Below are positions 4,234 through 46,592 of a stretch of DNA of 64,000 bases, in pieces. A model generated the notes under the pieces. That model was not told the origin of the DNA. It worked only from the letters and a program-made list of their open reading frames with translations, and made no database searches. The DNA is from Halorarum halobium (GTDB lineage: Archaea > Halobacteriota > Halobacteria > Halobacteriales > Haloferacaceae): positions 806,001 through 870,000 of the forward strand of contig NZ_CP134949.1 of NCBI RefSeq assembly GCF_032116555.1. The letters are read 5' to 3'. Both the position numbers and the translations under genes were made by a program. How positions within the stretch are numbered: the first letter of the stretch is position 1; each line of letters opens with the position of its first letter.

Positions 4234-5694
4234 TCAGTCGTCCTCCTCGGGGAACGAGACGGATCGCTCGGTGTCGTGGGTGGGCGCCGAGGGCGCGTCG
4301 GCCAGCGTCTCGAAGAACCGGCCGGCGATGACGTCGCGGACGATCTCGGCCACCGACTCCGCCTCGTCCTTCTCGACCTCGGCGAGGATGCCGAGCGGGA
4401 CCTGCGCGCCGGCCATGTCGGCGTGGCCGCCGGCGCTGCCGATCTGACCGAGCGCGTCCCGAAGCGTCTCGCCAAGGTCGAGGTCGGCACCGCGGGTGCG
4501 GCCAGAAACGTACACCGTTCCCTCGGAAAAGCCGTACACGAGCGTCGTCGTGACGCCCTCCATGTCCAGCAGTTGCTCGGCGGCCTGGGCCAGCGCGTCG
4601 CGGTCCGAGAGCTCCCCGACGCAGGAAGCGACCGTCTCGCCCCGCGTCTCGCGGTTCCTGATGGCCCGCGCGATGACGTCGAGCACCTCCGAGCTGACGC
4701 TGGGCTCCTCGACGCGGGAGAGCACGTCCTGGTCGGTGTACGGCAGGAGGAACTCGGCGGCGTCGAAGTCCGCCCTGGCGGTCTCGCGGGTGAAGTCCTT
4801 CGTGTCGACGCGGATGCCGTACAGGAGCGCCGTCGCCACCTGCTCGTCGGGCTCCAGCCCGAACCGGTCCAGATACTCGGCGAGCAGCGTCGACGTCGCG
4901 CCCACGTCCGACCGGACGTCGATGAACTCCGCCTCGACGGGCACGCGCGGGGGGTGGTGGTCGACGACGATCGTCGGCCGGACGTCCCCGGGCAGGCCGT
5001 CGTTGATCCCGGGCCGCGAGTGGTCGACGAGCGCGAACGCGTCGTACGTCTCGCGCGGGTCGTCCTCGGGGTCCAGCTTCCGCATGTCGAGTTCGAGCAG
5101 GTTCACGAGCGCCCGGTTCTCCTGGTGGGAGATCTCGCCGTAGTAGCACGCCTCGGCTTCGATCCCGGCGAACTCCGCGATGCGGACGAGCGCGATCGCG
5201 GAGGCGATGGCGTCCGGGTCGGGGTTGTCGTGTGCCACCACCGCGAGCGTGCCCTCGACGCCCCGGAGCGCTCGCAACAGGTTCCACATCCGTTCTGCCG
5301 GCTCGTCGCGGGCCGCCGCCAGCACCCGATCCGTGGCGACTTGGATCGGGTCGATGACGTGATCCGAGAGCTCCGCGAGCGCCTGCAGGTCGGCCTCGTC
5401 GGCGTCGTCGCCGGCGTACGAGAGGATGAACGCGTCCGGGAACGCCGAGCGGGCCCGGTCGGCGACGGTGAGGTTCCTGGTCGCCACGTCGCCGGCGACG
5501 ACGATCATCTCGGCCCGGTCCGGGTACGTCGAGGGGTCGGTCGGGTCCGCCTCCAGGGCGTCGACGTTCTCCTCGCGGAGCGCCGTCGCTCGGCCGCTGT
5601 CGTCGGTGACGACGTGGAGTTTGCCGGGCCGGTCGGCGAGCGACGCGACGATGTCGCGGCCGACCGCGCCACAGCCGAGGACCAGCCGACACAT
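4234..5694 (-). CDS. DHH-family phosphoesterase with N-terminal TrkA_N-like (RCK) domain and DHHA1 tail
   Basis: LVLGCGAVG Rossmann start; HDNPDPDA, LVDH, VVDHH, YGIRVDT and AGGH motifs. Confidence 0.88.
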   Translation of the reverse strand: MCRLVLGCGAVGRDIVASLADRPGKLHVVTDDSGRATALREENVDALEADPTDPSTYPDRAEMIVVAGDVATRNLTVADRARSAFPDAFILSYAGDDADEADLQALAELSDHVIDPIQVATDRVLAAARDEPAERMWNLLRALRGVEGTLAVVAHDNPDPDAIASAIALVRIAEFAGIEAEACYYGEISHQENRALVNLLELDMRKLDPEDDPRETYDAFALVDHSRPGINDGLPGDVRPTIVVDHHPPRVPVEAEFIDVRSDVGATSTLLAEYLDRFGLEPDEQVATALLYGIRVDTKDFTRETARADFDAAEFLLPYTDQDVLSRVEEPSVSSEVLDVIARAIRNRETRGETVASCVGELSDRDALAQAAEQLLDMEGVTTTLVYGFSEGTVYVSGRTRGADLDLGETLRDALGQIGSAGGHADMAGAQVPLGILAEVEKDEAESVAEIVRDVIAGRFFETLADAPSAPTHDTERSVSFPEEDD

Positions 5695-5781
5695 CACAGG
5701 GAATCGTCGCGGGCGTCCCGGAAAACCCTACCGTACTGGTCGCTTCAGCGGACGGGAGAAAAACTGGTGCCGGACCGACCG

Positions 5782-7290
5782 TCAGGGGATCAGCGCCGCC
5801 GCGGCGGCCTGGGCCGTCTCGATGACCGGCCCGAAGCCGGGCAGCAACAGCAGCGTCGCCACGGCCGCGAACAGCACCGCGGCGTACAGCGCCGTCGGCG
5901 TCGCGCCGAGTTCGAACTCCGTCTCGGGGTCGTCGAACCAGAGCGCCTTCACGACGCGGCTGTAGTAGAACAGCGACAGCGCGCTGTTGACCGCACCGAC
6001 GGCGGCGAGCCACCAGTAGCCCGCGCCCACGGCGGCCGCGAACAGGAAGTACTTCGAGAAGAAGCCCCCGAACGGCGGCAGCCCCGCGAGCGAGAACATG
6101 AACACGGACATGGCGACCGACGCCATCGGCGCCCGCGTGCCGAGCCCCGCGTAGTCCTCGAACGTCCGGCCGATCTCCCAGTGCTCGGCGAGCGCGACGA
6201 ACAGGAACGCGCCGGTGTTCATGAAGCCGTAGACGAGCAGGTGGGCCATCGCCGCACCCATCACGTCGCCGCCGGCGGAACCGGTCCAGGCGGCGAGGCC
6301 GATGAGCGCGTAGCCGGCGTGCCCGATGGAGGAGTACGCCAGCATGCGCTTGACGGTCTCCTGGGTCGCCGCGGCGAAGTTACCCAGCGTCATCGTCACG
6401 ACCGCGAGGATCTGGAACAGGAGCACCCAGTCGACGGAGGCGACGACGTCGCCGCCCGCGAGCGGGAAGCCGACGACGAACACGCGGAACGCGAGCGCGA
6501 ACCCGGCGGCCTTCGAGGCCGACGAGAGGAAGCCACTGATGGGTGCGGGCGCGCCCTCGTACGCCTCGGGCGCCCAGAAGTGGAACGGCACGGAGGCGGT
6601 CTTGAACGCGAACCCGCCGGCGATCATCAGGATGCCGATGGCGGCGACGCCCGCGAGCCCCTCGTCCGCCTCGGTCAGCGCGGCGGCGACGTCGGGCAGC
6701 AGGAGGCTGCCGGTCGCCGCGTACACCAGCGAGATGCCGAAGACGAACACTGCCGAGGAGAGCGCGCCGATGAGGAAGTACTTCAGCCCCGCCTCGACGC
6801 TCCCGCGGTTGCCCTTCAGGAACGAGACGAGCGCGTACGAGGGGAGCGAGGCCAGTTCGAGCGCGACGAACGCCACCGCGAGCGAGTTCGCCGAGGCCAT
6901 CAGCGCCATCCCGGTCGCGGCAAACAGCGTGAGGCTGTAGAACTCCGCGCGGTGCGGGTCGTCGGCGAGGTAGTCGTAGCTCGCGACGACGACCAGCGCC
7001 GTCACCGAGGCGAACACCGCGGCGAAGAACAGCGACATGCCGTCGACGACGAGCGCCTCGCCGTACAGCGCGACGCTGTCCTCGGGACCCGAGAGCACGC
7101 CGGCAGCGCCCGTCAGCAGCGCGCCCGCCGCGCCGAGCGCCGCGAGCGAGCCGACCGTCGAGACGGCCGCGAGCAGCGTCGGCCTGTCCTCGGTCGGATA
7201 CACCGCGTTGATGATCAACAGCAGCAGTCCGGTGGCCGCGAGCAGGACGGCGGGACCGAGCGCGACGAGGCCCGAGACGAGCGTCGCCAT
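5782..7290 (-). CDS. nuoN: NADH-quinone oxidoreductase-like complex subunit N
   Basis: EAGLKYF, FKTASVPFHFWAPEAYEGAP, KRMLAYSSIGH; last gene of the nuo operon. Confidence 0.93.
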   Translation of the reverse strand: MATLVSGLVALGPAVLLAATGLLLLIINAVYPTEDRPTLLAAVSTVGSLAALGAAGALLTGAAGVLSGPEDSVALYGEALVVDGMSLFFAAVFASVTALVVVASYDYLADDPHRAEFYSLTLFAATGMALMASANSLAVAFVALELASLPSYALVSFLKGNRGSVEAGLKYFLIGALSSAVFVFGISLVYAATGSLLLPDVAAALTEADEGLAGVAAIGILMIAGGFAFKTASVPFHFWAPEAYEGAPAPISGFLSSASKAAGFALAFRVFVVGFPLAGGDVVASVDWVLLFQILAVVTMTLGNFAAATQETVKRMLAYSSIGHAGYALIGLAAWTGSAGGDVMGAAMAHLLVYGFMNTGAFLFVALAEHWEIGRTFEDYAGLGTRAPMASVAMSVFMFSLAGLPPFGGFFSKYFLFAAAVGAGYWWLAAVGAVNSALSLFYYSRVVKALWFDDPETEFELGATPTALYAAVLFAAVATLLLLPGFGPVIETAQAAAAALIP

Positions 7291-8811
7291 CTACGCACCA
7301 CCCCCCAGCAGCGGGACGACCGCGTCGGTGATCATGCCGAAGAACGCCTCCGGGGCGACCCCCAGCGCGATGGTACACAGCAGGAGCACCGCGAGCGGCG
7401 CGGTGTCGTGGAACTTCGCGCGGGTCACCTCGTAGTCGGTTTCGAGGCGGAACGGGCCGAACAGCGTGCGCTGCATCGCCCAGAGCAGGTAGCCCGCGAC
7501 GATGACGATGCCGAACATCGCCGCCGCGGTGAAAAGCGGCGCGGCCGGCAGGACCGTCGAGGCGAACGCGCCCTGGAAGATGAAGAACTCGGCGGCGAAG
7601 CCGGCCATCAGGGGCAGGCCCATGTAGCCGAATGCGCCGGCGACGAAGATGCCCGCGGTGACGGGCATCCGGTCTGCCATGCCGCCCATGTCGCCGAGCA
7701 TGCGCGTGTGGGTGACGTTGTAGATGACGCCGACCGCCATGAACATCAGCCCCGAGATGAGCCCGTGGGCGACCATCTGGAACGTCGCGCCGCCGATGCC
7801 GAACTCGGTGTAGGCGACGAGTCCGAGGATGACGTAGCCCATCGAGGACACCGACGAGTAGGCGACGATGCGCTTGAGGTCCTGCTGGGCCAGCGCGAGC
7901 ATCGCGCCGTAGATGACCGAGAGGACGGCGATGGCCGCGATTGGCACCGCGAGCGTCGCCGCGACGTCGGGTAGCATCGTGAAGTTGAACCGGAGCAGGG
8001 CGTACGTCCCCATCTTCAGGAGGACGCCCGCCAGCATCACCGAGGCGGGCGTCGGGGCCTCGACGTGGGCGTCGGGCAGCCACGTGTGGACCGGGACGAC
8101 GGGAACCTTCACCGCGAAGCCGAAGAACATCGCGGCGAACGCGACGGTGGCGAGCGTGCCGGCGCCCATCCCGAGGAAGCCAGAGAGTTCACCCCCGCGG
8201 AGCGCCTGCGCGATGGCCGGCAGCCCGAAGCTGTCGACGGGGAGGTTGAACACGAGCGCCATGAAGCCGATGAACATGATCAGCGAGGCGACGTTCGTGT
8301 ACACGAAGAACTTGATCGCCGCGTACTCGCGGCGCGGGCCGCCCCAGACCCCGATGAGGAAGTACATCGGGACGAGCACGGCCTCCCAGAAGACGAACCA
8401 GACGAAGAAGTCCAGCGCCGCGAACACGCCGAGCAGGTTCGCCTCCATGAACAGCATCAGCCCGTAGAACTGGCTCTGGCGCTCGTCGATGGGCGTCCAC
8501 GCCGACAGGATCGCCAGCGAGGTGAGCACCGTCGAGAGGACGATCAGCGGGAGGCTGATCCCGTCGAGGCCGACGAACCACTGGAGCGTGTAGCCGCCGA
8601 CGGTGAGCCAGTCGATCTGCGTCTCGAAGGCGAGCGATCCGCCCGACAGCAGGGCGTTGCCGGTCGCGTCGAACGCCGACCACATGTACAGGCTCCCGAC
8701 GACCGGGAGCAGGCTGAGGCCGAAGCCGACGCGGCCGGCGTACTCGTCCGGCGAGAGGAACGTTGCCAGCGCGGCCAGGAACGTGAATCCGATGAGTGCT
8801 TCGAGTATCAC
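7291..8811 (-). CDS. nuoM: Complex I subunit M
   Basis: GLDGIS, FWEAVLVPMYFLIGVWG, VKVPVVPVHTWLPDAHVEAP; GTG start overlaps the nuoL stop (GTGA). Confidence 0.93.
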   Translation of the reverse strand: MILEALIGFTFLAALATFLSPDEYAGRVGFGLSLLPVVGSLYMWSAFDATGNALLSGGSLAFETQIDWLTVGGYTLQWFVGLDGISLPLIVLSTVLTSLAILSAWTPIDERQSQFYGLMLFMEANLLGVFAALDFFVWFVFWEAVLVPMYFLIGVWGGPRREYAAIKFFVYTNVASLIMFIGFMALVFNLPVDSFGLPAIAQALRGGELSGFLGMGAGTLATVAFAAMFFGFAVKVPVVPVHTWLPDAHVEAPTPASVMLAGVLLKMGTYALLRFNFTMLPDVAATLAVPIAAIAVLSVIYGAMLALAQQDLKRIVAYSSVSSMGYVILGLVAYTEFGIGGATFQMVAHGLISGLMFMAVGVIYNVTHTRMLGDMGGMADRMPVTAGIFVAGAFGYMGLPLMAGFAAEFFIFQGAFASTVLPAAPLFTAAAMFGIVIVAGYLLWAMQRTLFGPFRLETDYEVTRAKFHDTAPLAVLLLCTIALGVAPEAFFGMITDAVVPLLGGGA

Positions 8812-10868
8812 AGCAACCACCCTCCGTAGATGCCGAAGGCGATGAGAAGGACCGTCAGGCCCAGCGTGACCAGCGCCGCGTAGTTACTGACGACGCCGGT
8901 CTGGATGCGGCGGATCCGCGAGCCCGAAAAGAGGCTCACGGAGGAGACGGCGTTGACCGCGCCGTCGACGACGCCCTGATCGAAGGTGTCCGCGGCCCGC
9001 GAGAGCGGGGCGACGACCCGGGTCGCCAGGAACACCTGGTACTCGTCCTGGTAGTAGTTGTTGTACAGCAGGTCCTGGACGGAGCCGAGCCGTGCGGTGT
9101 GCTCGTCGGGCTCCGGGACCGCGTACAGCGAGTATGCGAGTCCGGCCCCGACCAGCGCGAGCCCGAGCGAGACGACCGCGCCGCCGAGCACCGTGGCGAG
9201 TTTACTGCCGGCGACCGTGCCCGTGGAGTAGCCCGCGAAGTCGTGGACGAGGTCCCCGTAGTAGTGTGCGGTCAGTCCCTCGAAGCCCCCGTCGAGCCAC
9301 GAGTGCAGGAAGTCGATGGGTGCGCCCGTGAGCACCTGGACCGGCACCATGTTGATGAAGCCGGCCGTCGCGGCGAGGACGCCGAGCACGACGAGCGGGG
9401 CCTTCACGTTCCAGCCGACCGCCTCGGGCGACTCGGCCTGTCCGGTCCGGGCGTCGCCGTGGAACGTGAGGAACACCATCCGGAACGTGTAGAACGCGGT
9501 CACCGGGACGGCGAGCAGGCCCATCGCGTAGCCCAGGAACAGCAGCGGCGTGCCGCCCAGGCCATGGGCGAGCGCCTCGTAGAGGATCTCGTCCTTCGAC
9601 CAGAAGCCGGCGAACGGGAAGATGCCCGCGAGCGCCAGCGAGCCGGCGAGGAACGTGTAGTAGGTGACGGGCATCCTGTCCTTCAGCCCGCCCATGTCCC
9701 ACATGTTCTCGTTGTGGTGCATCGCGATGATGACCGAGCCGGCACCGAGGAACAGCAGCGCCTTGAAGAACGCGTGGGTGAGCAGGTGGAACGTCGCCGC
9801 GACGTAGCCGCCCGCGCCCAGCGCGAGCATCATGTAGCCGTACTGTGAGATGGTCGAGTACGCGAGCACCTGCTTCAGTTCGCGCTTCACGATGCCCATC
9901 GACCCGGCGAACAGGGCGGTGAAGCCGCCGACCAGCGTGATGACGCCCAGCGCCGTCGGCGACACCGCGTAGAAGCCGTACATCCGGGCGACGAGGTAGA
10001 CCCCGGCCGCGACCATCGTCGCCGCGTGGATGAGCGCGGACACCGGGGTCGGGCCCTCCATCGCGTCGGGCAGCCAGGTGTGGAGCGGGAACTGGGCGGA
10101 CTTGCCGATCACGCCGCCCAGCACGAGCAGGCCGACGACCGTGAACCACGCCTCGGGACCGAGCCCCAGGAACGTGCTCACGGCTTCGGGCATCGCGGTC
10201 TCCGCATTCAGCGCGGCCGCAGCGAGCGCCGGGAACGAGTTCTCGCCCGCGAACTGCGCGGTGCCGAAGGTGGCGAAGACGGCGACGACGCCGACGAGGA
10301 AGAAGTAGTCCCCGAAGCGCGTCACCAGGAACGCCTTCTTCGCGGCCGAGGGCGGGCCGGCCTCCCGGAAGTGGAAGCCGATGAGCAGGAACGAGCAGAG
10401 CCCGACCAGCTCGAAGAACATGAACGCCATGAGCAGGTTGTCGGCGACGACGAACCCGAGCATGGACGCGGTGAACAGGCCGAGGCCGGCGTAGTAGCGC
10501 GGTAGGCCGGTCTCGCCCTCGTCGTTCATGTAGCCGAGCGAGAACACGTGGACCAGCAGCGCGACGAGCGAGACGATGACGAGCATCAGCGCCGCGAGCG
10601 GGTCGAGCAGCAGGCCGAAGGAGAGTTCGAGGTCGCCCGCGGCGGCCCACGTGTACAGCGTCTCGTCGTAGGCGTTCCCGCCGCCCACGGTCAGTGCGAC
10701 CCACGCCGAGAGCAGCAGTGATCCGGCGGTCGCGGCGATGCCGGCGAACGCGCCGCCCTTCGGGAGGACGTCCGAGTCCTCGCCGGAGAGCGCGCCGCCG
10801 AGCGAGATGAGGAACGACAGGAACGGCAGCAGGACGATGGCCGGCGCGTAGTCGAATGCTCCCGCCAT
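8808..10868 (-). CDS. nuoL: Complex I subunit L
   Basis: GKSAQFPLHTWLPDAMEGPTPVSALIHAATMV; LAYSTISQ. Confidence 0.95.
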   Translation of the reverse strand: MAGAFDYAPAIVLLPFLSFLISLGGALSGEDSDVLPKGGAFAGIAATAGSLLLSAWVALTVGGGNAYDETLYTWAAAGDLELSFGLLLDPLAALMLVIVSLVALLVHVFSLGYMNDEGETGLPRYYAGLGLFTASMLGFVVADNLLMAFMFFELVGLCSFLLIGFHFREAGPPSAAKKAFLVTRFGDYFFLVGVVAVFATFGTAQFAGENSFPALAAAALNAETAMPEAVSTFLGLGPEAWFTVVGLLVLGGVIGKSAQFPLHTWLPDAMEGPTPVSALIHAATMVAAGVYLVARMYGFYAVSPTALGVITLVGGFTALFAGSMGIVKRELKQVLAYSTISQYGYMMLALGAGGYVAATFHLLTHAFFKALLFLGAGSVIIAMHHNENMWDMGGLKDRMPVTYYTFLAGSLALAGIFPFAGFWSKDEILYEALAHGLGGTPLLFLGYAMGLLAVPVTAFYTFRMVFLTFHGDARTGQAESPEAVGWNVKAPLVVLGVLAATAGFINMVPVQVLTGAPIDFLHSWLDGGFEGLTAHYYGDLVHDFAGYSTGTVAGSKLATVLGGAVVSLGLALVGAGLAYSLYAVPEPDEHTARLGSVQDLLYNNYYQDEYQVFLATRVVAPLSRAADTFDQGVVDGAVNAVSSVSLFSGSRIRRIQTGVVSNYAALVTLGLTVLLIAFGIYGGWLL

Positions 10869-10869
10869 C

Positions 10870-11172
10870 TCACCACCTCATGGTCGTCGCGTCGGTGACG
10901 TCGACGCCCTCGAAGTTCCGGTACAGCACCAGGATGATACCGAGCCCGACCGCGACTTCCGCCGCGGCGAGCGCCATCGTGAACAGCCCGAACGTCTGGC
11001 CCGTGACGTTCCCCCAGTACTGGGAGAACGCGACGAGGTTGATGTTCGCGGCGTTGAGCATGAGTTCCACGGACATGAGGAACAGGAGCGCGTTCCGTCG
11101 GGTGAGCAGGCCGAACACGCCGATACAGAAGACGGCGGCGGCCAGCAGCAGGTAGTACTGCGGGGGGACCAT
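10870..11172 (-). CDS. nuoK: Complex I subunit K
   Basis: RRNALLFLMSVELMLNAAN; AAAEVAVGL. Confidence 0.93.
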   Translation of the reverse strand: MVPPQYYLLLAAAVFCIGVFGLLTRRNALLFLMSVELMLNAANINLVAFSQYWGNVTGQTFGLFTMALAAAEVAVGLGIILVLYRNFEGVDVTDATTMRW

Positions 11173-11543
11173 CAGTCGCTCCCCCCGTCGGTGCGTTCGC
11201 TCGAATCACGGGACAGCGCGGTCTCGAGGACGCCCTCGTCGCCGCGCTTGGCGAGGAAGATGGCGCCGTCGATGGCGATGTCTAGCACGACGGCGATGAC
11301 GAGGAACGCCACGAGGAACCCCTCGGCGGGGACGGGACCGCCGGTGATGTTGAACATCGCGTAGCCGATGCTCGCGGTGATCGACGCGCCCTCGGGGAAG
11401 CCGGCCGCCTCCTCGAGCGGGAACGACGAGGTGAGGAACACGAGCGCCATCACCACGAACAGCGCCACCGCCGCGAGGCCCGGTACGAGATGCGACCCGA
11501 GTTTCAGTTCGGGTTTCGACCCGCGTGCACCGTCCTGGCTCAC
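11172..11543 (-). CDS. nuoJ2: Complex I subunit J, C-terminal part (J2)
   Basis: Hydrophobic ORF between J1 and K (IGYAMF...FLVIAVVLDIAIDGAIFLAKR); GTG start overlaps the J1 stop. Confidence 0.8.
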   Translation of the reverse strand: MSQDGARGSKPELKLGSHLVPGLAAVALFVVMALVFLTSSFPLEEAAGFPEGASITASIGYAMFNITGGPVPAEGFLVAFLVIAVVLDIAIDGAIFLAKRGDEGVLETALSRDSSERTDGGSD

Positions 11544-11818
11544 GTGCGCGTCACCTCGGGTTCGGTCCCGGCTTCGTCGGTCCGCACGAGCATCACGGCG
11601 AACGTGATGAGCACGAGCACCCCGCCCACGTAGACGAGTATCTGCATGGCGGCGAGGAACTCCGCCTGCAGCATCACGTAGTGGACCGCGACGCTCAACA
11701 GGGCGACTCCCAGCAGGAGTGCGGAGTGCCACACGTCCCTGACCAGGACGACGCCCAGGCTGGCGCCCACCGTGACGAGGGCGAACAGCGCGAACGCGAT
11801 AGTCTCTGCTACAACCAT
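11540..11818 (-). CDS. nuoJ1: Complex I subunit J, N-terminal part (J1)
   Basis: HSALLL...AEFLAAMQILVYVGGVLVLITFAVML. Confidence 0.88.
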   Translation of the reverse strand: MVVAETIAFALFALVTVGASLGVVLVRDVWHSALLLGVALLSVAVHYVMLQAEFLAAMQILVYVGGVLVLITFAVMLVRTDEAGTEPEVTRT

Positions 11819-12029
11819 TACGCGACACTCCCGTCGGAGGGCGTTTGAAGGTTTCGAGAACGTTCCGCGCGTATGCGTGTGTGCGTGGCGATTACCGGTG
11901 GTGAGTTCCGGAGGGTTTTCCTCTCCGGTAGGCGTCTGTTACCGTTGGATTCCGTGTTGGAATTCAGTCGGTTGCGCGCGATTCTTTTGCCTGGAAATGG
12001 CGCGTGCGGGAGTCTTTGCCTCATATAGG

Positions 12030-12180
12030 CAGATTACTGCTGCTTGACCTAGGAGAGCCTCGCCCTCCCCAGCCGCTTGCGATGCTCGCTCGCAGGCTCG
12101 CTACGCTTCTCACCCCTCGCGCGCGAGTGCTCGCGCCACAGGGGCGCTCGCGTCACGCGCGCCGACCGCCAGCACGCGCT
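12030..12180 (-). repeat. Dispersed palindromic repeat, copy B (between nuoI and nuoJ1)
   Basis: Reverse complement of the copy A core (ccctccccagccg...gctcgctcgcaggctcgct...ccctcgcgcgcgagtgctcgc...gtcacgcgcgcc). Confidence 0.85.
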
Positions 12181-12467
12181 CGACCGCACCCCTGCTGCCA
12201 ACGTACCCGCCGGCCAGCCGGACGAAAGTCAGGCCGGACTACCCACGGCGTGTACCTGCGGTAGTCGGGCCCGCGACGCTCGACCGACTTCCCGGCGGGT
12301 GGGAATGGAAGGGACCGCGGGGGCTTCCGAGGCGGTCCGAACGGGACGAGTGACCGAGTCGAGGGGTCAAACGTAGACGGGAGCTTTCGCGGCCATCACT
12401 ACGGTAGTAGGGACTCAGCACCACACCATACCGAAAACTGCTCCAGAAAAACGCCGGAATCAGAAAA

Positions 12468-18169: not shown

Positions 18170-18784
18170 CTACCGCCGCCGCTCCCTGAAGCCGTCGACG
18201 CCAAGGTCGTGCAGTTCGCGCGACGTTTCGGCGACGTCCCCGACCAGGGAATCGTGGTACGCGAGCAGTTCCTCGCGTAGTTCCTCGTGTTCGCGCGCGA
18301 GAATCTGTGCCGCCGACAGGCCCGCGTTGAACGACTTGCCGGCGTCGACGGCGACGATGGGCGCGCCGGTCGGCATCCCGATGACCGAGTCGACGGACTT
18401 CTCCTGAACTGGAACTCCCACCACGGGAATCGGGTACGCGATGCTCGCGGTCATGTTCGGCAGGTCCGCGGACTTGCCGCCCGCGCCCGCGACGATGACG
18501 TCGAGCCCCCGGGGGGCCGCCGTCTCGCCGTAGGCGTACATCAGTTCGGGGGTCCGATGGGCCGAGACGACGTACGTCTCGTAGGTGAAGCGCGCGGCGG
18601 GCGCGTCGTGGAAGTCGGTCTGCTCGGCGAAGCCGAGTTCGGAGAGCGCGTCGAACGCCCCCTGCATGACGTCGAGGTCCGAGTCCGACCCCATGATGAT
18701 CCCCACGTCGGGGGTGGCCGCGGGGTCGGCGTCGCTCCCAGCCTCCGATTCGAGCCGGTCGATGAGGTCCTGGACGGTCGTCAT
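18170..18784 (-). CDS. purE: N5-CAIR mutase
   Basis: IIMGSDSD, VVSAHRTP, AGAGG..ADLPNM, GMPTG. Confidence 0.93.
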   Translation of the reverse strand: MTTVQDLIDRLESEAGSDADPAATPDVGIIMGSDSDLDVMQGAFDALSELGFAEQTDFHDAPAARFTYETYVVSAHRTPELMYAYGETAAPRGLDVIVAGAGGKSADLPNMTASIAYPIPVVGVPVQEKSVDSVIGMPTGAPIVAVDAGKSFNAGLSAAQILAREHEELREELLAYHDSLVGDVAETSRELHDLGVDGFRERRR

Positions 18785-19956
18785 TGGTTGGCGTGGTCGG
18801 TGAACGTGAGTCGTTCTCGGAGGTCGCGCGCCGCCGCGAGCAGGTCGTCGGTGTCCGAGTCGGCGTCGGTCAGCGTCACGTGACCCATCTTGCGCAGCGG
18901 GCGCACTTCGTGTTTACCGTACCAGTGCAGGTGGGCGTTCGGCACGGAGAGGGCACGTTCGACGCCGCGGAGCCGTGCCGGCTCGGGCTCGTCGACGTCG
19001 CCGAGCACGTTCGTCGTCACGGTCGGCGCGCGCGCCTCGGCCGGCGCGAGCGGCCACCCGAGCACGGCGCGGACGTGCTGTTCGAACTGCGAGGCGGTCG
19101 CGCCCTCGATGGTCCAGTGGCCCGAGTTGTGCGGGCGCGGGGCGACCTCGTTGAGCAGCACGTCGCCGCCGGCGGTTTCGAACAGTTCGATGCCGAAGAC
19201 GCCGCGCCCCTCGAGCGTGTCCAGCGCGTCGAGCGCGACCTCGCGGGCGCGCTCGGCGACCGCGTCGCTCGTCCGCGCGGGAACGACCGTCTCGCGGAGA
19301 ATTTCCGCCTCGTGGACGGTCTCCGTGAGGGGGAACGCGCGCACCTCGTCGTCGCCGCGGACGCCGATCACCGCAACCTCGCGCTCGAAGCCGATCAGTT
19401 CCTCGGCGAGCGCGCCGCCGGTTTCGGCACCGACCTCCGCCAGCGCCGCCCCGTAGTCGTCGCCGCGTTCGACGGGGCGGTTGCCGCGACCGTCGTAGCC
19501 GCCGGTCCGGGCCTTGAGCATGACGCCCTCACCGGGCAGTCCCTCGACCGCGTCCGCGAGGTCGTCGGCGTCGTCGACGCGGACGAACTCCGGCACCGGC
19601 ACCCCGGCGTCGGCGAACGCCCGGTTCTGCACGAGTTTGTCCTGGATCGTCCGGAGTGCGTCGGGCGAGGGATGGACCGGCACGTCCGACTCCTCGTGGA
19701 CCGCAGCGAGCACGTCGGGGTCGGCGAGTTCGATCTCCAGGGTCAGCGCGTCGGCCCGTTCCGCGAGCGCCCGCACCGCCTTCGGGTCGTCGAACGCGCC
19801 TGCGACCTGGTCGGCGACGCCCGCCGCCGGGCAGTCCGGCGTCGGGTCGAGCACGACCACGTCGACGCCGAGCGGCGAGGCGGCCTCCGCGAGCATCCGG
19901 CCGAGCTGCCCGCCGCCGACGACGCCGAGCGTCGGGCCGGGACACGTCGGGTTCAC
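18781..19956 (-). CDS. purK: N5-CAIR synthase
   Basis: GVVGGGQLGRM, GGYDGRG, NEVAPRPHNSGH, WYGK...RKMGH; GTG start about 27 nt downstream of TTTATT. Confidence 0.93.
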   Translation of the reverse strand: MNPTCPGPTLGVVGGGQLGRMLAEAASPLGVDVVVLDPTPDCPAAGVADQVAGAFDDPKAVRALAERADALTLEIELADPDVLAAVHEESDVPVHPSPDALRTIQDKLVQNRAFADAGVPVPEFVRVDDADDLADAVEGLPGEGVMLKARTGGYDGRGNRPVERGDDYGAALAEVGAETGGALAEELIGFEREVAVIGVRGDDEVRAFPLTETVHEAEILRETVVPARTSDAVAERAREVALDALDTLEGRGVFGIELFETAGGDVLLNEVAPRPHNSGHWTIEGATASQFEQHVRAVLGWPLAPAEARAPTVTTNVLGDVDEPEPARLRGVERALSVPNAHLHWYGKHEVRPLRKMGHVTLTDADSDTDDLLAAARDLRERLTFTDHANQ

Positions 19957-29619: not shown

Positions 29620-29692
29620 GGGCCGGTGGGGTAGCTTGGTATCCTTCGGCCTTCGGGTGGCCGTAACCGCGATTCGAATTCGCGCCGGCCCA
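29620..29692 (+). tRNA. tRNA-Pro (CGG)
   Basis: GGGCCGG/CCGGCCC acceptor stem; anticodon arm CGGCC-TTCGGGT-GGCCG; TTCGAAT T-loop; upstream TTAAAG. Confidence 0.93.
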
Positions 29693-39855: not shown

Positions 39856-39949
39856 GGCGGGGCCAACTCGGGGCTGGTGTAAAGTCGTGTCGTCGTGGGA
39901 GTTCGGTTCATCGTGGTCACGAACTGCGACGTCGAGGTGTGGGAGCGGT

Positions 39950-40666
39950 TCAGACCGAGACGTTCTGTGTGAACCACGCCAGGATGTACAGTATCGTTAG
40001 CACGCCGGCCACGGCCTCGATGTACTGGACGTATTTTCTGCGAACCTCCCAGGTGGCCTGCCGTGATTGGGAATCCCCGGCCGGCGTCTCCGAGGGGGGT
40101 TGCTCGGCCACCTCGGTTCGGTTCCGGGTTCCCCGTGGTTCGGTGCGTTCGGTCCCCGTTCGCGGCCGGGGGTGCTGGAGGAAGATCGACTTCACGGTCG
40201 AAACGGCGGCGAGAAGGGCCTTCTTGTGGGACTGGACTGCGAGCCGGACCCCCGACCGCGGGAGCGATTTCAGGTGCATGAGGACCACCGTCGGATCCTC
40301 GGAGACGGTATCGATCCCCTCCCCGAGGGGGACGTGCCAGTCCTTGTGAAAGAACTCGGGGAGAAACAGGAGTAGCGCGACGGCAACGGAGGGGGCGAAC
40401 GTCGGGGCGAACAGGAGCACTGACAGGGTCACCCCCGAGACGACGAGGATCAGGTACAGGATCTCGTGGCCGTACATCCCGGGAACGGAAAACAGGACGA
40501 ACTCGAGGAGCAGCGGGAACGGGAGGAGCACGATGAACGAGTGGGGAGTCAGGAGGCTCGCCGCCCCTGCGACGAACACCGACACGGTCACCCTCACCGC
40601 GAGTTCGACGAGGTGTGTCGAGATGGGCGCCTCCGAGTCCCAGCTCGGACCGACATCGGATGTCAC
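39950..40666 (-). CDS. Hypothetical membrane protein (start uncertain)
   Basis: Hydrophobic N-terminal half and a C-terminal TM segment; no recognisable motif. Confidence 0.5.
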   Translation of the reverse strand: MTSDVGPSWDSEAPISTHLVELAVRVTVSVFVAGAASLLTPHSFIVLLPFPLLLEFVLFSVPGMYGHEILYLILVVSGVTLSVLLFAPTFAPSVAVALLLFLPEFFHKDWHVPLGEGIDTVSEDPTVVLMHLKSLPRSGVRLAVQSHKKALLAAVSTVKSIFLQHPRPRTGTERTEPRGTRNRTEVAEQPPSETPAGDSQSRQATWEVRRKYVQYIEAVAGVLTILYILAWFTQNVSV

Positions 40667-40860
40667 GATAGTACGAACGTGTAGTGTACACTAACACATC
40701 AAAGAGGTATCGCTTACACGGGTTCTCGCGTGATGAAGGAACGGTCGCCGGAGCCTCCGCGAACCCGCACACTTCGGAGTTGCACATGAAAGGTCGCAGC
40801 CGCAGGGTGCTGGTCGGCCCGGGCGGCCGATGGATCGAGCCGCGATCAGCGAGACCGCCG

Positions 40861-40902
40861 TCAGTTGTACTCGCGCCACCGATAGCCGCACTCCTTACAT
40901 TT
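40861..40902 (-). pseudogene. Displaced original 3' end of tfs (left att junction)
   Basis: Minus strand AAA TGT AAG GAG TGC GGC TAT CGG TGG CGC GAG TAC AAC TGA = KCKECGYRWREYN*. Confidence 0.9.
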
Positions 40903-41150
40903 GCAAGAGTGTGGCTCAGCGGGGTTCACTTATAAAGGTTGCCCAAGCCTTTAGTAGTGGATGCTTTTCGAGCCTTACCTCATGTAATCTATCCCGACGC
41001 CATCTTGCGGTTTCGGTATCGCAGAGGGTAGGCAACTACACTCTTAGCAGAGCCTTGGTATTTCTTGCACCATTGGTGCAAGGAGAACTAAGTCAATCTG
41101 CGAGAAATGTAGATACAGAGCCTAAGACGCGGATACGAGGGTTCCGACCC

Positions 41151-42329
41151 ATGAGTAAGGCAAACGATACATCGGACAGTAGTGGCAACGCTGACTTAAA
41201 AGAGAATCAGGCGCAACAGGACTTGTGCGATTTCCTGTCTGAGCGAAGCGAGCTTGTCGTCTCCTACGAGGAGCCAGACGACGGGCGGGACCGTCGCCAC
41301 GACTGCCTACCTGTCGCCCGAACGACGGACGGAGACAAGGCAGACGTGAGCGATTTCCCCAGTGGCAAGAACGACGGTCGGGGCAACTTCAGTAAGTCCA
41401 CCTACACCCGATACCGGGATACGATGAACGACTTCATCCAAACGCAAGACGTGAGCGACTTGATGGACGTGACGCCCCGAGAGATTAACCGCTACAATCA
41501 GGTGACGCAACGCCGGGACTATGCCCGGACCACTCGTGACGGATTGCTCGAAACTCTCGAAGTGTTCTTCAAGTGGGCAGAAACGGAGTGGCGTGCGCCA
41601 CGAGGGGACGATAAGCTCAGTGAGACAATCGCCCGAAAGCGTGAGGATTTGGACGTAGGTGGCGACGAGAAATCACGGGCAGGCGACGACAATCACCGTA
41701 TCTCGACTGAGCGAGCAGAGGAGATAGTCGGACACTTGGCGAAACACCAGTACGCCTCTCGCCAGATGATTGAGTTTCTGCTAATCTATCACGTCGGTAT
41801 GCGGAAATCCGCGCTACTGTCTATCAATTGCGACGACGTGATGCCACGGAAGGGAATCATCCAGATTCGCAATCGCCCGGAGCAGACAGGGGTTCGACTC
41901 AAGCGAGGGAACAAGGGTGAGCGAGACGTGAATATCGCCAGTGGCGTCATGGGTGTCGTCACTGACTACATAGACGAGAATCGGACAGAACCGCAAGACA
42001 GCAGTGACGCGCTACTCACGTCATGGGCGGGACGGATAGACGACTCCACTCTATACCGGGACATTACGGGATTGACGAAGTGCGGAGAGTGTACCGACGA
42101 CGACGGCGAGCCTCTCGTCAACCAGAATGCCTCAGACTGTCCCGAGTCTATCGGTTGCCACGACTTGCGACGAGTGGCAATCACCCGAATGCGGGACGAA
42201 GGAGTGTCGTGGGATACGATTAGTGGACGAGTGAATGCGACTGTCCAAATGCTCAAGGACCACTACGATTCCCCGACTCACTCACAGGCGGCAGAACGCC
42301 GGAAGGAGGAGATATTGAACGCACTGTAG
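41151..42329 (+). CDS. Tyrosine recombinase/integrase (haloarchaeal type)
   Basis: Catalytic R (GMRKSAL), K (RLKRG), HxxR (HDLRR) and Y (KDHY); Cys-rich insert before HxxR; SAM-like N-terminal region. Confidence 0.92.
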   Translation: MSKANDTSDSSGNADLKENQAQQDLCDFLSERSELVVSYEEPDDGRDRRHDCLPVARTTDGDKADVSDFPSGKNDGRGNFSKSTYTRYRDTMNDFIQTQDVSDLMDVTPREINRYNQVTQRRDYARTTRDGLLETLEVFFKWAETEWRAPRGDDKLSETIARKREDLDVGGDEKSRAGDDNHRISTERAEEIVGHLAKHQYASRQMIEFLLIYHVGMRKSALLSINCDDVMPRKGIIQIRNRPEQTGVRLKRGNKGERDVNIASGVMGVVTDYIDENRTEPQDSSDALLTSWAGRIDDSTLYRDITGLTKCGECTDDDGEPLVNQNASDCPESIGCHDLRRVAITRMRDEGVSWDTISGRVNATVQMLKDHYDSPTHSQAAERRKEEILNAL

Positions 42330-42501
42330 CCTTTCTCTCGCCCGACACTCGAACCGCCTCACAAGCCTCATACGTCGTCTCACAGCATTCGTAGCAGGGG
42401 ACCGAGGGTTCCTTGCGTCCCGCAGGTTCCCCTCCTCGTGACTGCGGTTGCGGTGTGCTATCCGTATAGTTTTATGATGGTCCGACGATGTGTGTCAAAT
42501 A

Positions 42502-42798
42502 ATGGCAGTGCCCGAGTTTACGGTTCGAGGAAATAAAGTGCGAATAGAAGGAAATACGAACGAAAAAACCAATTGTGGTAAGATAGAAGTTTACAAAGAC
42601 CGGATGAAGATACAGCAAAAAGGGACAGTAATGTGTAAAGGCTGGATAACTGTCCAATTCGACAATATCGTTGACGTTCAAGTATCCTCATTAGGGAAAA
42701 TGCGATTCCAGACACGCCGTCAAGACGTTTCCGTCACTGGGCTTGGTGGACCGCCCGGTACGAAATTACTTGAACATATCCGCGACTATCTGCAATAA
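42502..42798 (+). CDS. Small basic protein, possibly PH-like fold
   Basis: 98 aa; beta-strand pattern (KIEVYKDRMKI...VQFDNIVDVQV) ending in a helix; not acidic. Confidence 0.55.
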   Translation: MAVPEFTVRGNKVRIEGNTNEKTNCGKIEVYKDRMKIQQKGTVMCKGWITVQFDNIVDVQVSSLGKMRFQTRRQDVSVTGLGGPPGTKLLEHIRDYLQ

Positions 42799-42809
42799 TA
42801 GAGACTGGG

Positions 42810-43064
42810 TTACTTGCCGTTACCGTGCATCCATTCCCGAATCTCGTCTTGAGCTTCGGAAACTTCTTTCTCTTTCTCTACCGAATTGTTTTCCGATAGG
42901 CTGGAAGATTGTTCGTTTTGCAAATATTCTCTTGCCAATGCCGCAATAACCGAATCAATATCGTTATGGTCCGAATTTCGCTTGATTTTATTAAGGAGAC
43001 TCTTGGTGCTTTCGGACAATTGTTCACTATTCCGTGGAGAAAGGGCGAAATCTTCACTCATCAA
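42810..43064 (-). CDS. Small protein, possible ribbon-helix-helix regulator
   Basis: QLSESTKSLLNKIK...DIDSVIAALAREYL pattern; start overlaps the upstream ORF stop. Confidence 0.5.
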   Translation of the reverse strand: MMSEDFALSPRNSEQLSESTKSLLNKIKRNSDHNDIDSVIAALAREYLQNEQSSSLSENNSVEKEKEVSEAQDEIREWMHGNGK

Positions 43065-43572
43065 CTACCGCCTCACAGAATACTTTGAGCATATGCCGAA
43101 CCTGTTGGGCAAGCTTGCCATTCCGGCGATAGGCATTCCGGGGACCTGTCGTCTCAATCCCGTGGTTGTCCATGAGTGCCATTTCTCGCGGAGTGACGGC
43201 AATCTCAAGCGGCAGATAGACCGACTCGGATACGTCCGTAGGCTCGGAGGCAGATACGTCGTATGGGGTTACGTCGCCCCGAATGACGGCACGACACCAA
43301 TCACCGAATGCCGAATTGTGGTGAAGGGTAGAAGCACTATCAGGCTCCGGTTCTCCCATGCTGGCGTAAGCTTCTCGAAGAATCTGTACCTCTCTATCGG
43401 GAATCTTACACGTAGTGGTCCGTGAATCCGACTCTCGCGGATTCGGGAAGGTCGCGCTACTCATGTCCCTCAAGGTAGTCTTCCGCAAGCAGTCGTACCA
43501 TGACACCGCGAGGAACCTGTCGGTTCTCTCCAAAGCGTACCTCTGTCGCTTCGGCAAGGGTGTCAAGCTCAT
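43054..43572 (-). CDS. Hypothetical protein of the element
   Basis: 172-aa ORF; TTTAAA about 40 nt upstream on the minus strand; true start could be a downstream Met. Confidence 0.55.
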   Translation of the reverse strand: MSLTPLPKRQRYALERTDRFLAVSWYDCLRKTTLRDMSSATFPNPRESDSRTTTCKIPDREVQILREAYASMGEPEPDSASTLHHNSAFGDWCRAVIRGDVTPYDVSASEPTDVSESVYLPLEIAVTPREMALMDNHGIETTGPRNAYRRNGKLAQQVRHMLKVFCEAVVDE

Positions 43573-43599
43573 CCTCAGTCAATCGTAGCATTGTGTGAT

Positions 43600-44249
43600 T
43601 CGCAGTCATAGATTTAAACAAGTGTCTTAAGAGTCAACTTGTGAGACTCGAAAAAGCAAGTTTGGACGGTGGCACTTACTTAAGCCACAGGTATCCACCA
43701 TGAGCATAGTGAAACCGAAAGCAGAAGCCCAGTACGTTGAACAGTACGGGAACTACCACTACAGTGGGCGAAAGGGCAGAAACCTTTCTACCCATTAGCA
43801 CATACGTACTCCACGTACTTAAATCTTTCGGTTTTTTGATATATCATTTGCTATCAATCGCATATTGCCTGATGAGATTTGCCTATATTTTTGCGATTCG
43901 GCAGGCGAAGGCCCGAGACTGATAACATATAAACTATATAAAAAAACTGACCTATCAAATTATCAAACTCATATATTCAAACCGACATATTGGGGAAGAT
44001 TTCTATTCAATCAGACATATTAAAGAGATTGAAGTTTCGAAAGATTTAAGTGTCCAGAGCACGTACATATTATCAGGCAGTTTAGATATAACGACTGATA
44101 CATCTACGCGGAATTAGAGTAAGTAGAGCAGAGGGGAAAGCGGCACAAACCCCAACTACCCAAAGACATATATTAGTTGGGTCTACAGGCACTTAAAGCT
44201 TTCGGCTACTTCCCCTCTGCTTGCATCCGTTTTCTGCCTATGATTCAGT
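43600..44249. promoter_or_regulatory. AT-rich control region / candidate replication origin of the element
   Basis: 18-bp direct repeat at 43974 and 44004; nested inverted repeats at 44127-44221; lies between divergent gene blocks. Confidence 0.5.
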
Positions 44250-44372
44250 ATGCAAGCAAACGAAACAAACCAAACTAACAGCAACGCGACAGAAACATCT
44301 CTCGAAGTATCGGGGACCGTGGTTTTCCAAGTCCTTTGGTTCACTCTCGTAGTGGCGGTGATTCTCCTATGA
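44250..44372 (+). CDS. 40-aa membrane microprotein (not in the ORF track)
   Basis: MQANETNQTNSNATETSLEVSGTVVFQVLWFTLVVAVILL*; its stop overlaps the rep ATG (ATGA). Confidence 0.55.
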   Translation: MQANETNQTNSNATETSLEVSGTVVFQVLWFTLVVAVILL

Positions 44373-45400
44373 GTGCGACAGAGTGCCTTCGAGGGATGGC
44401 AGAGATACTTGATGAGACGGACGTGACGATAGAATGGCCTGTCACTGAATTACCCAATGCTAACTCCACACGCATTGATACATTCTTGACATGGCTTGAG
44501 GAACGTAGGGACAAGGCTCACCCGTATCCCCTTCAACACACATGGTCCCACCGAAACGCCCGCAAGCGATTTGCTCGCTCGAAGGATGTGGACCGCTACT
44601 ATTGGGACACCTACGACAAGTTCACGACAGTATTGCTCACTCGTACTGCCGACGAGAGTACCGCCGGACTGATTGAGCAATCGGAGTCATTCAACCCACG
44701 GGCATACAAGGCGAAACGTCGCAGAATGCTCAAGAGCCTGTCTGACGACTATGCAGGAGTCTCGTGCATCGCTCCAAAGTACAACCTACCCATGGCTAAC
44801 TCCACAGTCTTGAGCCATGTGCATGAAGCCTACTGGGTCCCCGGACACTACTCGGCAGAGGATTTTGAACCCCTCTTAGACAAGCACCGTGAGACGGTCC
44901 CCGGAGCGACGACGGCACACGTCTCAGTGCAACGGCACTCTGCCGACAGCTACCCATGCCTAACTCCACAGAGTGAGACGGACGCAATCCGTGGGGCGAC
45001 GACGGCACTCCCGTATGAGCTTGCGGAGAACCTACCACTGATGAACGTAGCGACGGACGCAAGCGACTTGCACGATAGTCGTGCGCTCGAATGGTGCGCC
45101 CGCCTCTCGGCAGGCTCAGACGGGGACCACTCCACCAAGGGTGTACGTCGATGGCAACCGTTCGGGCAATTCCGTGAGTGCGCGGATACGGTGAAGGATG
45201 GCCTACGCTACAAGGTGGAGAGAGACTATAGGAGAACCGTCAGAGACGAGAAACTGAATAACCCATGGCTAAGTCCACAGCCATTGGATGAATCGAAGGC
45301 TTCCCCTCGTACAATCTCGCAACCCGCCAGAGACGCACTGATTCAAGCGGTGGCTCAGTATGCCCGAATGCCCTCTCCCGACCCCATGGAGGTATTCTGA
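44369..45400 (+). CDS. HUH-superfamily rolling-circle Rep-like protein
   Basis: Motif I-like TTVLLTRTA; motif II HVHEAYWV; DFEPLLDKH...AH segment resembling haloarchaeal plasmid/pleolipovirus Reps; atypical motif III (PYELAENL). Confidence 0.68.
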   Translation: MSATECLRGMAEILDETDVTIEWPVTELPNANSTRIDTFLTWLEERRDKAHPYPLQHTWSHRNARKRFARSKDVDRYYWDTYDKFTTVLLTRTADESTAGLIEQSESFNPRAYKAKRRRMLKSLSDDYAGVSCIAPKYNLPMANSTVLSHVHEAYWVPGHYSAEDFEPLLDKHRETVPGATTAHVSVQRHSADSYPCLTPQSETDAIRGATTALPYELAENLPLMNVATDASDLHDSRALEWCARLSAGSDGDHSTKGVRRWQPFGQFRECADTVKDGLRYKVERDYRRTVRDEKLNNPWLSPQPLDESKASPRTISQPARDALIQAVAQYARMPSPDPMEVF

Positions 45401-45475
45401 AACCCTCGTAATCAGGGGTTTGAGTGCGCTCCATAGACAGTCTCAACATTCACAATATTTCAGAAAATTTTAACA

Positions 45476-45805
45476 ATGAACTCGGAAATCGACCTAACAA
45501 TTCCAGAAACTCACGACAGAATCGTAGAAATCGTAACCGCCTCTCTCGAATCCGAGGGAATCGACTATGAAACCGAACGGTGGCTTGACGACAAGTCACG
45601 GGTTGATGTATTCTACGATGAGATAGTTCTTGAAATCAAGTCATCGGTAGGAGTAGTGAATCACGACAAGCTTGCCCGATACGAGGCACACCCGGAAGTG
45701 GCGGAAGTGGTGTTAGTCATGCCCGAACCCCATGCTTCGAGGGTCGAGACAGGGGACTATCGGACCCTCACGATTCCGCGAGAGAAATTCACCGTGACAT
45801 TCTGA
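45476..45805 (+). CDS. Minimal PD-(D/E)XK nuclease-fold protein
   Basis: YETE...RVDV...VLEIKS...KLARY...VVLV. Confidence 0.65.
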   Translation: MNSEIDLTIPETHDRIVEIVTASLESEGIDYETERWLDDKSRVDVFYDEIVLEIKSSVGVVNHDKLARYEAHPEVAEVVLVMPEPHASRVETGDYRTLTIPREKFTVTF

Positions 45806-45864
45806 AGGTGTTGTGGCTCTGTATGTGCAACAAATTTATTAGTTGATACATACAAATAGTATGT

Positions 45865-46080
45865 ATGTCCAGTCCTCTCAAATACATCGCGGCGGCATGT
45901 GGGGTCATCGCAGTACTACTGGCTTACTCGTCTGCCATGACCATCATGCAAGGTAATCTTGAGCAGGGTTTGACTCCGTGGTGGATTGACTTCGCCACCG
46001 CCAACCCGATGCTTTTCGCCCTCGTTCTGGTTGGCGGCACTGCCCTGATTGGTGCCCCGTTCAGAGCAATATTCGGATAG
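45865..46080 (+). CDS. 71-aa two-TM membrane protein
   Basis: Two hydrophobic helices; TTTATT about 29 nt upstream of the ATG. Confidence 0.65.
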   Translation: MSSPLKYIAAACGVIAVLLAYSSAMTIMQGNLEQGLTPWWIDFATANPMLFALVLVGGTALIGAPFRAIFG

Positions 46081-46268
46081 CAGATATTCTCGGTATCGTG
46101 GAAGTAGCGGCAATATTCTCTCCTACTATCGCAGATTAGGTAGTTTGAAGTGCCCGGCGACCGTGGTTTCATCTGGACGGATTACGATGCAATCGTTGCA
46201 AGGATTAAGGCTCACGCGAAAAACCTATTCTGCCACTAACGGCAGTTTTGGGCCTTCTATCGCTGGAT

Positions 46269-46592
46269 TTAGTTATACTCTCTCCAGCGGTTATGACAAT
46301 CTTTGCACTTGAAAAAGCGCGTCGGCGGTTCGTCCGCGGCGCCGGTCTGCTTGATGGTGTACCACGCGACGCCGTGCCCGCAGTCGTCGCAGGTCACGTC
46401 GTCGGAGGTTGGCTTCCCCTCGAAGTTCGCGCCCTCCTCCGTCTCGATGACGTCGTCGTCGCTCTGTTCCTCGGTGGAGACGAACCGGGCGGCGCGCTCC
46501 TCGTCGCGCGCCTCGCTGTGGCCACATGAGGTACAGACCATCCGGCCGTCCTCGCTCACCATCATCGAGCCGCACTCCTCGCAGAACTGCAT
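46269..46592 (-). CDS. tfs: Transcription factor S (TFS / RpoM-like), with element-derived 3' end
   Basis: FCEECGSMM..CTSC and CDDC..QTGAADEPPTRFFKCKDC zinc ribbons; acidic DE hairpin. Confidence 0.93.
   Translation of the reverse strand: MQFCEECGSMMVSEDGRMVCTSCGHSEARDEERAARFVSTEEQSDDDVIETEEGANFEGKPTSDDVTCDDCGHGVAWYTIKQTGAADEPPTRFFKCKDCHNRWREYN

Follow-up and report, generated by a model that had tools for sequence, protein, structure and literature searches.

The stretch of DNA analysed here (the window, 64,000 nt; all coordinates are positions in it) belongs to the genome of Halorarum halobium (G000, 3 contigs) and holds, on its minus strand, two versions of the 3' coding end of tfs, which encodes the archaeal transcript-cleavage factor TFS (transcription factor S). 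Their stop codons are separated by 5408 nt, and the block between them is of low guanine-plus-cytosine (GC) content and contains an intact tyrosine integrase gene (int) and a Rep-like gene (Table 1). The GC content, calculated over 200-nt windows, was 0.35-0.615 across 41000-46399 versus ~0.63-0.79 in the flanks. A scan of the window revealed no tRNA gene within 9 kb, the nearest ones being at 29620 and 55636. An earlier inspection of the letters alone (the sequence-only reading) had described two in-register tfs tails 5408 nt apart, bracketing an AT-richer block with an integrase and a Rep. The tails were borne out by the minus-strand reading and the stop positions, and the integrase by a Pfam match above cut-off (PF00589), while the label Rep is probable only, as its PF07232 score is below threshold.

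The tail on the far side of the block from int closes a complete tfs open reading frame (ORF). The product passes NCBIfam TFS_arch (TIGR01384; 83.3 bits vs a cut-off of 64.75), shows Pfam Zn_ribbon_TFIIS in its C-terminal part (3e-16) and Zn_ribbon_RPB9 in its N-terminal part (2.2e-06), and ends FFKCKDCHNRWREYN* with TAA. The gene body could be aligned to two genomes of the same genus, G001 and G002, down to 46271. The tail next to int reads, on the minus strand at 40861-40902, AAA TGT followed by the codons listed in Table 1, which corresponds to KCKECGYRWREYN*. An in-frame stop is found 20 codons upstream of it; therefore, it is a fragment and not a gene. It is very probable that a 5408-bp plasmid-like element (40904-46311) has integrated site-specifically in the 3' coding end of tfs, supplying a substitute gene end; the two tails are accordingly called element-borne and displaced.

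The state of the gene before integration was assessed in relatives. Orthologs of tfs are present in 41/41 related genomes, and the gene ends of 29 orthologs from other genomes were compared. In G001 and G002, which are without the element, tfs ends FFKCKECGYRWREYN*, the peptide of the displaced tail, and this peptide was found at the end of tfs in 8 of the 29 relatives, both genomes included. The element-type KDCHN tail was found in none of the 29, and thus the outcome that would have contradicted the sequence-only reading, element-free relatives already ending in KDCHNRWREYN, did not occur. The residue following the second CxxC is Gly in all 29 and His in the product of the window gene; the tail swap in the window changes E to D and GY to HN. 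The predicted empty site was recovered in part: the tfs end peptide was as expected, but the flank joined to it is the one at 39908 and not at 40860. The conserved flank in G001 and G002 starts within ~15 nt of the tfs stop, and homology of the window to both genomes resumes at 39908, which means that the block 39909-40860 is also absent from them.

The layout recurs in other genomes. Eight loci encoding integrases 73-100% identical, window included, were fetched, and seven had enough flank to be assessed: the window, L043 (G102, integrase 90% identical), L039 (G292, Halovenus sp. HT40, 80%), L040 (Halarchaeum acidiphilum, 81%), L045 (a metagenome contig, 79%), L070 (G549, 77%) and L071 (G583, 73%). 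The remaining one, L044 (98%), is a metagenome contig of 1716 bp, too short to judge its layout. The same arrangement was seen in 7/7 assessable loci, which come from several genera and one metagenome: ~220-290 nt upstream of int, on the opposite strand, there is a displaced tfs tail, and beyond the other end of the element, 3.6-6.1 kb away, a full-length tfs that ends in a different tail. Stop-to-stop spans were 5408 (window), 6126, 4105 and 4139 nt in four loci and, by coordinate subtraction, ~4344, 4177 and 3616 nt in the other three. Common to the elements are int, a Rep-like gene (27-47% identity, in either orientation) and one or two small ORFs. The suggested search for integrase homologs beside duplicated tfs tails was therefore positive in every assessable locus and, together with the empty sites in G001 and G002, upholds the proposal of an element with an integrase of its own whose target is the Zn-ribbon codons of tfs and which brings along a replacement tail. 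These loci define a site-specific, tfs-targeting clade of small integrative elements of 3.6-6.1 kb.

Twelve control tfs loci in relatives, picked mainly for AT-rich tails or flanks, were scanned for the tail motif over ~15-20 kb downstream of the unoccupied gene. A second tail was found in 0/12, so tfs is no general hot spot in that sample. The scan was also negative in nine loci with Rep-bearing islands, and gave one chance match (L071, 6163-6198) in all 23 loci scanned. These results bear on the origin of the fragment at 40861, which could alternatively be what is left of a tfs paralog or of a local duplication that had nothing to do with the element. The genome does have a tfs paralog elsewhere (41% identity), and G008 has a partial second tfs beside tfs. 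Nevertheless, the 48-nt fragment 40861-40908 is 93.75% identical to the G001 tfs end (E 3.8e-14) and starts exactly at the crossover core described below, the same fragment occupies the same place relative to int in all seven loci, and no unoccupied control locus has a second tail, which makes such an origin extremely improbable. The partial gene in G008 (G008:C1:2717397-2717687, plus strand) covers residues 1-98 at 63% identity, is divergently oriented and adjoins the tfs at 2717783-2718100 (minus strand).

The distribution of int is patchy: it was found in 3/401 genomes across the class, in 1/257 in the family of the window and in 3/232 in the family of G292 (the samples overlap). In a collection of 5.8 billion proteins, 44 cluster representatives of int were obtained at 51-92% identity, many on contigs of 4.2-6.3 kb, with Haloferax prahovense, Halobacterium hubeiense, Haloglomus halophilum, Halovenus salina and Haloferax volcanii among the source names; the Haloferax-named integrases of the clade are at 92% and 67% identity. 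As a separate observation, in a genome of 70% GC (L046, G030:C14, ~18750-19650) the tfs stop is followed immediately by a ~900-bp block of 41-42% GC; this block carries CCATG-rich inverted repeats at its two ends, has two small ORFs and is without an integrase or a second tail.

Table 1. Features of the tfs locus and of the element in the window
Feature	Positions	Strand	Remarks
Chimeric tfs, 107 aa	46269..46592	-	codons 1-96 of host composition; last 11 codons and TAA attributed to the element
Element-borne tail, AAA GAT TGT CAT AAC CGC TGG AGA GAG TAT AAC TAA (KDCHNRWREYN*)	46269..46304	-	AT-richer codons
Displaced host tail, AAG GAG TGC GGC TAT CGG TGG CGC GAG TAC AAC TGA (KECGYRWREYN*)	40861..40896	-	no start codon
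tfs-proximal core, CAAGTGC	46305..46311	-	same at this junction in 6/7 loci; CAAATGC in L070
int-proximal core, CAAATGT	40897..40903	-	host version; also in the unoccupied tfs of G001
int-proximal att arm	40904..41150	+	conserved in 7/7 aligned loci
tfs-proximal att arm	46130..46268	-	downstream of the borne stop; 5-locus alignment
Tyrosine integrase (int), 392 aa, intact	41151..42329	+	Pfam Phage_integrase PF00589, 38.4 bits (cut-off 27.1); phrog_1 'integrase'
Rep-like protein, 343 aa, intact	44369..45400	+	related to DUF1424/PF07232 'putative rep'
Extra block, ~950 bp	39909..40860	-	directly after the stop of the displaced tail; not part of the 5.4-kb element
ORF, 102 aa	42490..42798	+	no family match
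ORF, 84 aa	42810..43064	-	no significant family match
ORF, 172 aa	43054..43572	-	no family match
Small ORF, 54 aa	43457..43621	-	51% identical over 45 aa to an ORF of the L043 element
ORF, 109 aa	45476..45805	+	phrog_5928, function not known, E 9.4e-11
ORF, 71 aa, hydrophobic	45865..46080	+	no family match

The borne and displaced tails were compared with each other. In the five loci measured they share 23-30 of 36 nt (64-83%) and 6-10 of 11 residues. The window pair, with 23/36 nt, has the joint lowest DNA identity, and 8/11 of its residues are identical; the third codon position is G or C in 5/11 codons of the borne tail vs 10/11 of the displaced one. The borne tails of all seven loci retain the CxxC pair and the RWR-x-Y pattern. 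Their stop is TAA in six loci of seven, and that of the displaced tails is TGA in the same proportion (6/7). Beyond the core, the two tails of L040 and L045 hardly differ over 18-27 nt. The idea that the tail is conserved as protein rather than as DNA holds in spirit for the window copy, but a short DNA core is kept as well, identical at both junctions in most of the loci.

This core was located by aligning the two junctions of each locus in gene direction. The stretch shared in all seven loci covers 7 nt, namely the last base of the second Phe codon and the Lys and Cys codons, and it is the same at both junctions in 6/7: CAAGTGC in L043, L039, L040, L045 and L071, and CAAATGC in L070. In L043 the core is flanked by mismatches on both sides, so the overlap region is not longer than 7 nt. 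The overlaps of tyrosine recombinases are 6-8 bp, which the 7-nt core fits. Exact CAAGTGC was found in 15 of the 29 unoccupied tfs orthologs from other genera. This suggests that protein constraint and the GC bias of third codon positions keep the core constant, making the site suited to a broad host range.

A chimeric gene would also result if the element had entered without its integrase, the homologous recombination of the host joining a tfs fragment on a plasmid to the tfs of the chromosome. The tails are homologous over ~45 nt, and the identity of 18-27 nt beyond the core in L040 and L045 would be in line with such a route. However, the junction falls at the same 7 nt in 7/7 loci even though the tails are only 64-83% identical, the identical stretch in L043 is just those 7 nt, and the int-proximal arm is conserved in all seven loci. 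Homologous recombination is consequently considered very improbable, and integration by site-specific recombination is preferred.

The arms next to the core have conserved elements of their own. The block adjoining the core in the int-proximal arm is TGTGGCTCAG or TGCGGCTAAG in the seven-locus alignment, and TATAAA at 40931-40936, ~25 nt from the core, is invariant in 7/7 loci. A palindrome (inverted repeat) at ~41054-41092 is common only to the window and L043. In the tfs-proximal arm, GATTGCATCG at 46185-46194, ~75 nt past the borne stop, is invariant in the five-locus alignment. The inferred arms of the attachment site of the element (attP) showed dyad matches at 6-10 of 14 positions versus a control mean of 4.0 (P(>=9) 0.0095), a modest signal from seven mutually related loci. 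A small hairpin followed by a T5 run is present after the borne stop (46199-46268, minus strand), and similar hairpins were seen in L039 and L045. As candidate terminators these hairpins were rejected, being no more stable than shuffled sequence (z -1.33 to +0.32 in five loci; window -1.31), and a terminator role is only a guess.

The following course of integration is proposed. The attachment (att) site of the element would carry the 7-nt core matching the Phe-Lys-Cys codons together with its own last 11 tfs codons and stop. After integration, presumably catalysed by the integrase, host codons 1-96 would read into the element-borne tail and the tfs ORF would stay whole, with the original host tail left as a dead fragment beside int. 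The chimeric TFS is expected to work, and a circular form of the element probably exists, which the product of the Rep-like gene would replicate. In the window, recombination may have proceeded through an overlap with two mismatches, replication then resolving the heteroduplex so that one version remained at each junction; the core pattern observed would be one of the two outcomes predicted by this mismatched-overlap model.

The catalytic set of tyrosine recombinases is R..K..HxxR..H/W..Y, and all of these positions are occupied in the window integrase by R218, K251, H337, R340, W354 and Y372, which are invariant in 10 clade members. Three cysteines, C311, C314 and C330 (a CxxC and one more), are invariant in the same 10 sequences and lie in an insertion just before HxxR that may be a metal site; to our knowledge, a Cys insertion at this place is not typical of tyrosine recombinases. 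The gene is whole and outside the att site, the core being ~250 nt upstream, which shows that the integrase is not of the SSV type ('suicidal'). The nearest named relatives are integrases of haloarchaeal viruses and plasmids at 24-34% identity, including SNJ2, HHPV4 and Harhisp1; a tblastn comparison with the SNJ2 integrase gave 27.2% identity over 84% of the query (E 1e-20).

Several observations weigh against the interpretation as an integrated plasmid-like element. The two cores of the window mismatch at 2/7 positions, and most tyrosine recombinases handle mismatched cores poorly; owing to this mismatch the copy may be a rare or trapped event. It could even stem from a one-off integration, the window copy being a trapped or decaying fossil whose excision is blocked by the mismatched cores. 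Besides the differing cores, such a fossil would agree with the finding of a single int in G000 (one 100% match among the 3 contigs), with no second or episomal copy. Conversely, both genes, int (392 aa) and the Rep-like one (343 aa), are intact, the GC content of the element shows no drift toward that of the host, an int of 98% identity is present on the metagenome contig L044, and one sediment run contains contigs that match the int region at ~98% identity. These metagenome copies indicate that near-identical copies circulate, and on balance a trapped fossil is regarded as rather unlikely, albeit a serious alternative.

Further adverse points concern free forms of the element. Plasmid, phage, viral-contig and public-run data gave no sign of a circular form, of an excision product or of a free plasmid. 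The Rep-like protein had no match in plasmid or phage collections, int had no close match in them (24-34% identity only), and a search with the int alignment and the attP-type pattern found nothing in viral contigs. Among the 24 public runs listed, 20 hold part of 40700-41300, with shares of at most 0.46, and four were aligned to the locus; the metagenome contigs at the locus were uninformative on the state of this strain. Candidate excision joints skipping 5408-5409 nt, with sides of 25-30 nt at 90% likeness, were rejected and read as the unoccupied tfs of other haloarchaea.

The block 39909-40860 is unconserved in the two same-genus relatives as well, and the ancestral site in this lineage was only partly reconstructed. 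It includes an orphan ORF of 238 aa with a hydrophobic product (39950-40666, minus strand), for which no homolog was found among 5.8 billion proteins except the product of the window itself (100%, one row), and no convincing match in 40 relatives. The block could have been left by an earlier insertion at this position, or it could represent a gene specific to the lineage; it has no bearing on the junction analysis.

Finally, the assignment of the Rep-like protein is weak. It scores 16 bits against PF07232, below the cut-off of 23, and no invariant Tyr was found among 14 sequences. Its structure model (mean predicted local distance difference test, pLDDT, 77.3) retrieved nothing from the PDB with Foldseek at E <= 0.001. 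The best VIA-align match was SIRV1 ORF119, with a weak Z of 6.8; we take this protein to be a Rep, which the title of the PDB entry does not state. RepB of pMV158 gave Z 5.2, and numerous unrelated chains of the GGDEF type scored in a range similar to that of these two matches (Z 5-6.2). On the positive side, 24 homologs were found, many on contigs of 1.8-2.4 kb, and three of them, at 47-54% identity, carry PF07232. In the HxH motif, which is conserved, H150 is invariant and H152 is present in at least 90% of the 14 sequences. The product of 44369-45400 is taken as no more than a probable replication protein.

A 22-nt repeat occurs four times inside the rep-like gene on the plus strand (44450-45280), at 44450, 44786, 44950 and 45259, in two reading frames. 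Four copies were found at matching places (9546-10376) in the rep of L061, an element of G312 whose Rep is 73% identical. With up to 5 mismatches allowed, neither L062 nor any of the other six tfs elements was found to contain the repeat. The matching positions in the window and L061 imply that the repeat is conserved as DNA, and the copies look like iterons or an origin.

The L061 region (G312:C1:307800-327700) contains, at 5008-12358, a related Rep-bearing island of ~5.3 kb, whose integrase (6501-7565) is a different one. The island lies midway along a fused ATP-binding cassette (ABC) transporter gene and has a 12-nt direct repeat at both junctions. The ORF for the membrane domain terminates in PMRQFGPRIIAYC*, and the sequence of the ATPase part is taken up again at PMRQMGQ. 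In this case the target gene appears to be split and not repaired. Chromosomal regions of low GC in G067, G402, G083, G182, G263, G095, G105 and G223 (L062-L069) also encode homologs of the Rep-like protein. Several of these are discrete islands of 5-6 kb, while L064 is low in GC throughout and L069 is at a contig end. No tfs gene, tail motif or close int homolog was found near any of L062-L069, and of the nine Rep loci scanned, counting L061, a single one had a tRNA gene in range. These islands likely use other targets.

Insertion into the end of a protein gene has precedents. In Escherichia coli, phage 21 and e14 integrate in the 3' coding part of icd, a housekeeping gene, and bring a diverged functional substitute end. 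They differ from the window element in being bacterial and phage-sized, and in their integrase lineage and target. The features of a gene-end replacement, that is a junction in the 3' coding part, a substitute end that leaves the ORF open and the displaced end opposite, were seen here in 7/7 loci.

In Archaea, according to the accessible part of a survey of thaumarchaeal integrated elements, 14 of 68 lie in 3'-distal regions of protein genes (PMC6563490). One of them, NitEve-E2, is described there as replacing 8 nt, including the stop, of a Zn-finger gene with element sequence, which reconstitutes the ORF (PMC6563490). As far as that description goes, the window element is alike in carrying an integrase, residing in the 3' end of a protein gene and supplying a new end and stop. 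It differs in the extent of the replacement, 36 nt (11 codons and the stop) of a conserved Zn ribbon versus 8 nt. Relative to the thaumarchaeal elements as presented in the same text, phylum and target are different, and here a whole integrase clade is found on one target. Because gene-end replacement with ORF reconstitution has already been described in archaea, the present case represents a new target and clade, not a new mechanism.

Among haloarchaeal elements, the available portion of PMC5861418 reports that SNJ2-type att sites nearly always overlap tRNA genes, the exceptions being three intergenic sites, and that the SNJ2 int is co-transcribed with orf2 and orf3. Within the limits of that portion, both systems have a tyrosine integrase of a haloarchaeal mobile element, encoded by a whole int beside the att site. 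Unlike SNJ2, the window element targets tfs instead of a tRNA gene, has no ORF between the att site and int, and belongs to a clade with three invariant Cys before HxxR. With regard to replication, the label pGRB1-like is used for small haloarchaeal plasmids with a DUF1424/PF07232 'putative rep' in the accessible text of a preprint (bioRxiv 10.1101/2025.02.15.638363). Going by this text, the homologs of the Rep-like protein on 1.8-2.4 kb contigs and the conserved HxH are similar to those plasmids. In contrast, 1.8-2.4 kb cannot hold both an integrase and a rep, and the window protein is below the Pfam threshold.

The sequence-only reading knew of no described TFS-targeting element family, and the literature searched named none either. 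No mention of TFS or tfs as an integration target was found in the full texts covered; the supplementary tables of PMC5861418 and PMC6563490 were outside the search and could list one. A 2021 review of archaeal tyrosine recombinases, in the part available, names a small number of att sites in archaeal protein-coding genes, tfs not being among them (PMC8371274); the terms 'tfs' and 'TFIIS' occur 0 times in the review, and 'tfs' 0 times in PMC5861418. According to the available text of the review, no archaeal att site within a gene has ever been tested for recombination, and it is asked there whether dyad symmetry is available in such genes (PMC8371274).

The exchange of the gene end, in which each element brings its own last Zn-knuckle, could also serve the element, its tail tuning or weakening transcript cleavage by the RNA polymerase of the host to its own benefit; such an effect is judged improbable. 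If it were true, tolerance of mismatched cores would let the clade move between hosts with differing tfs codons. What the locus provides is an integrase clade specific for a protein-coding site in a core transcription gene, with junctions that can be mapped to 7 nt. The element is a small, tractable candidate for testing recombination at archaeal intragenic att sites. Moreover, some strains have TFS proteins that are chimeras of host and element, a point of importance in annotation and whenever TFS sequences are compared.

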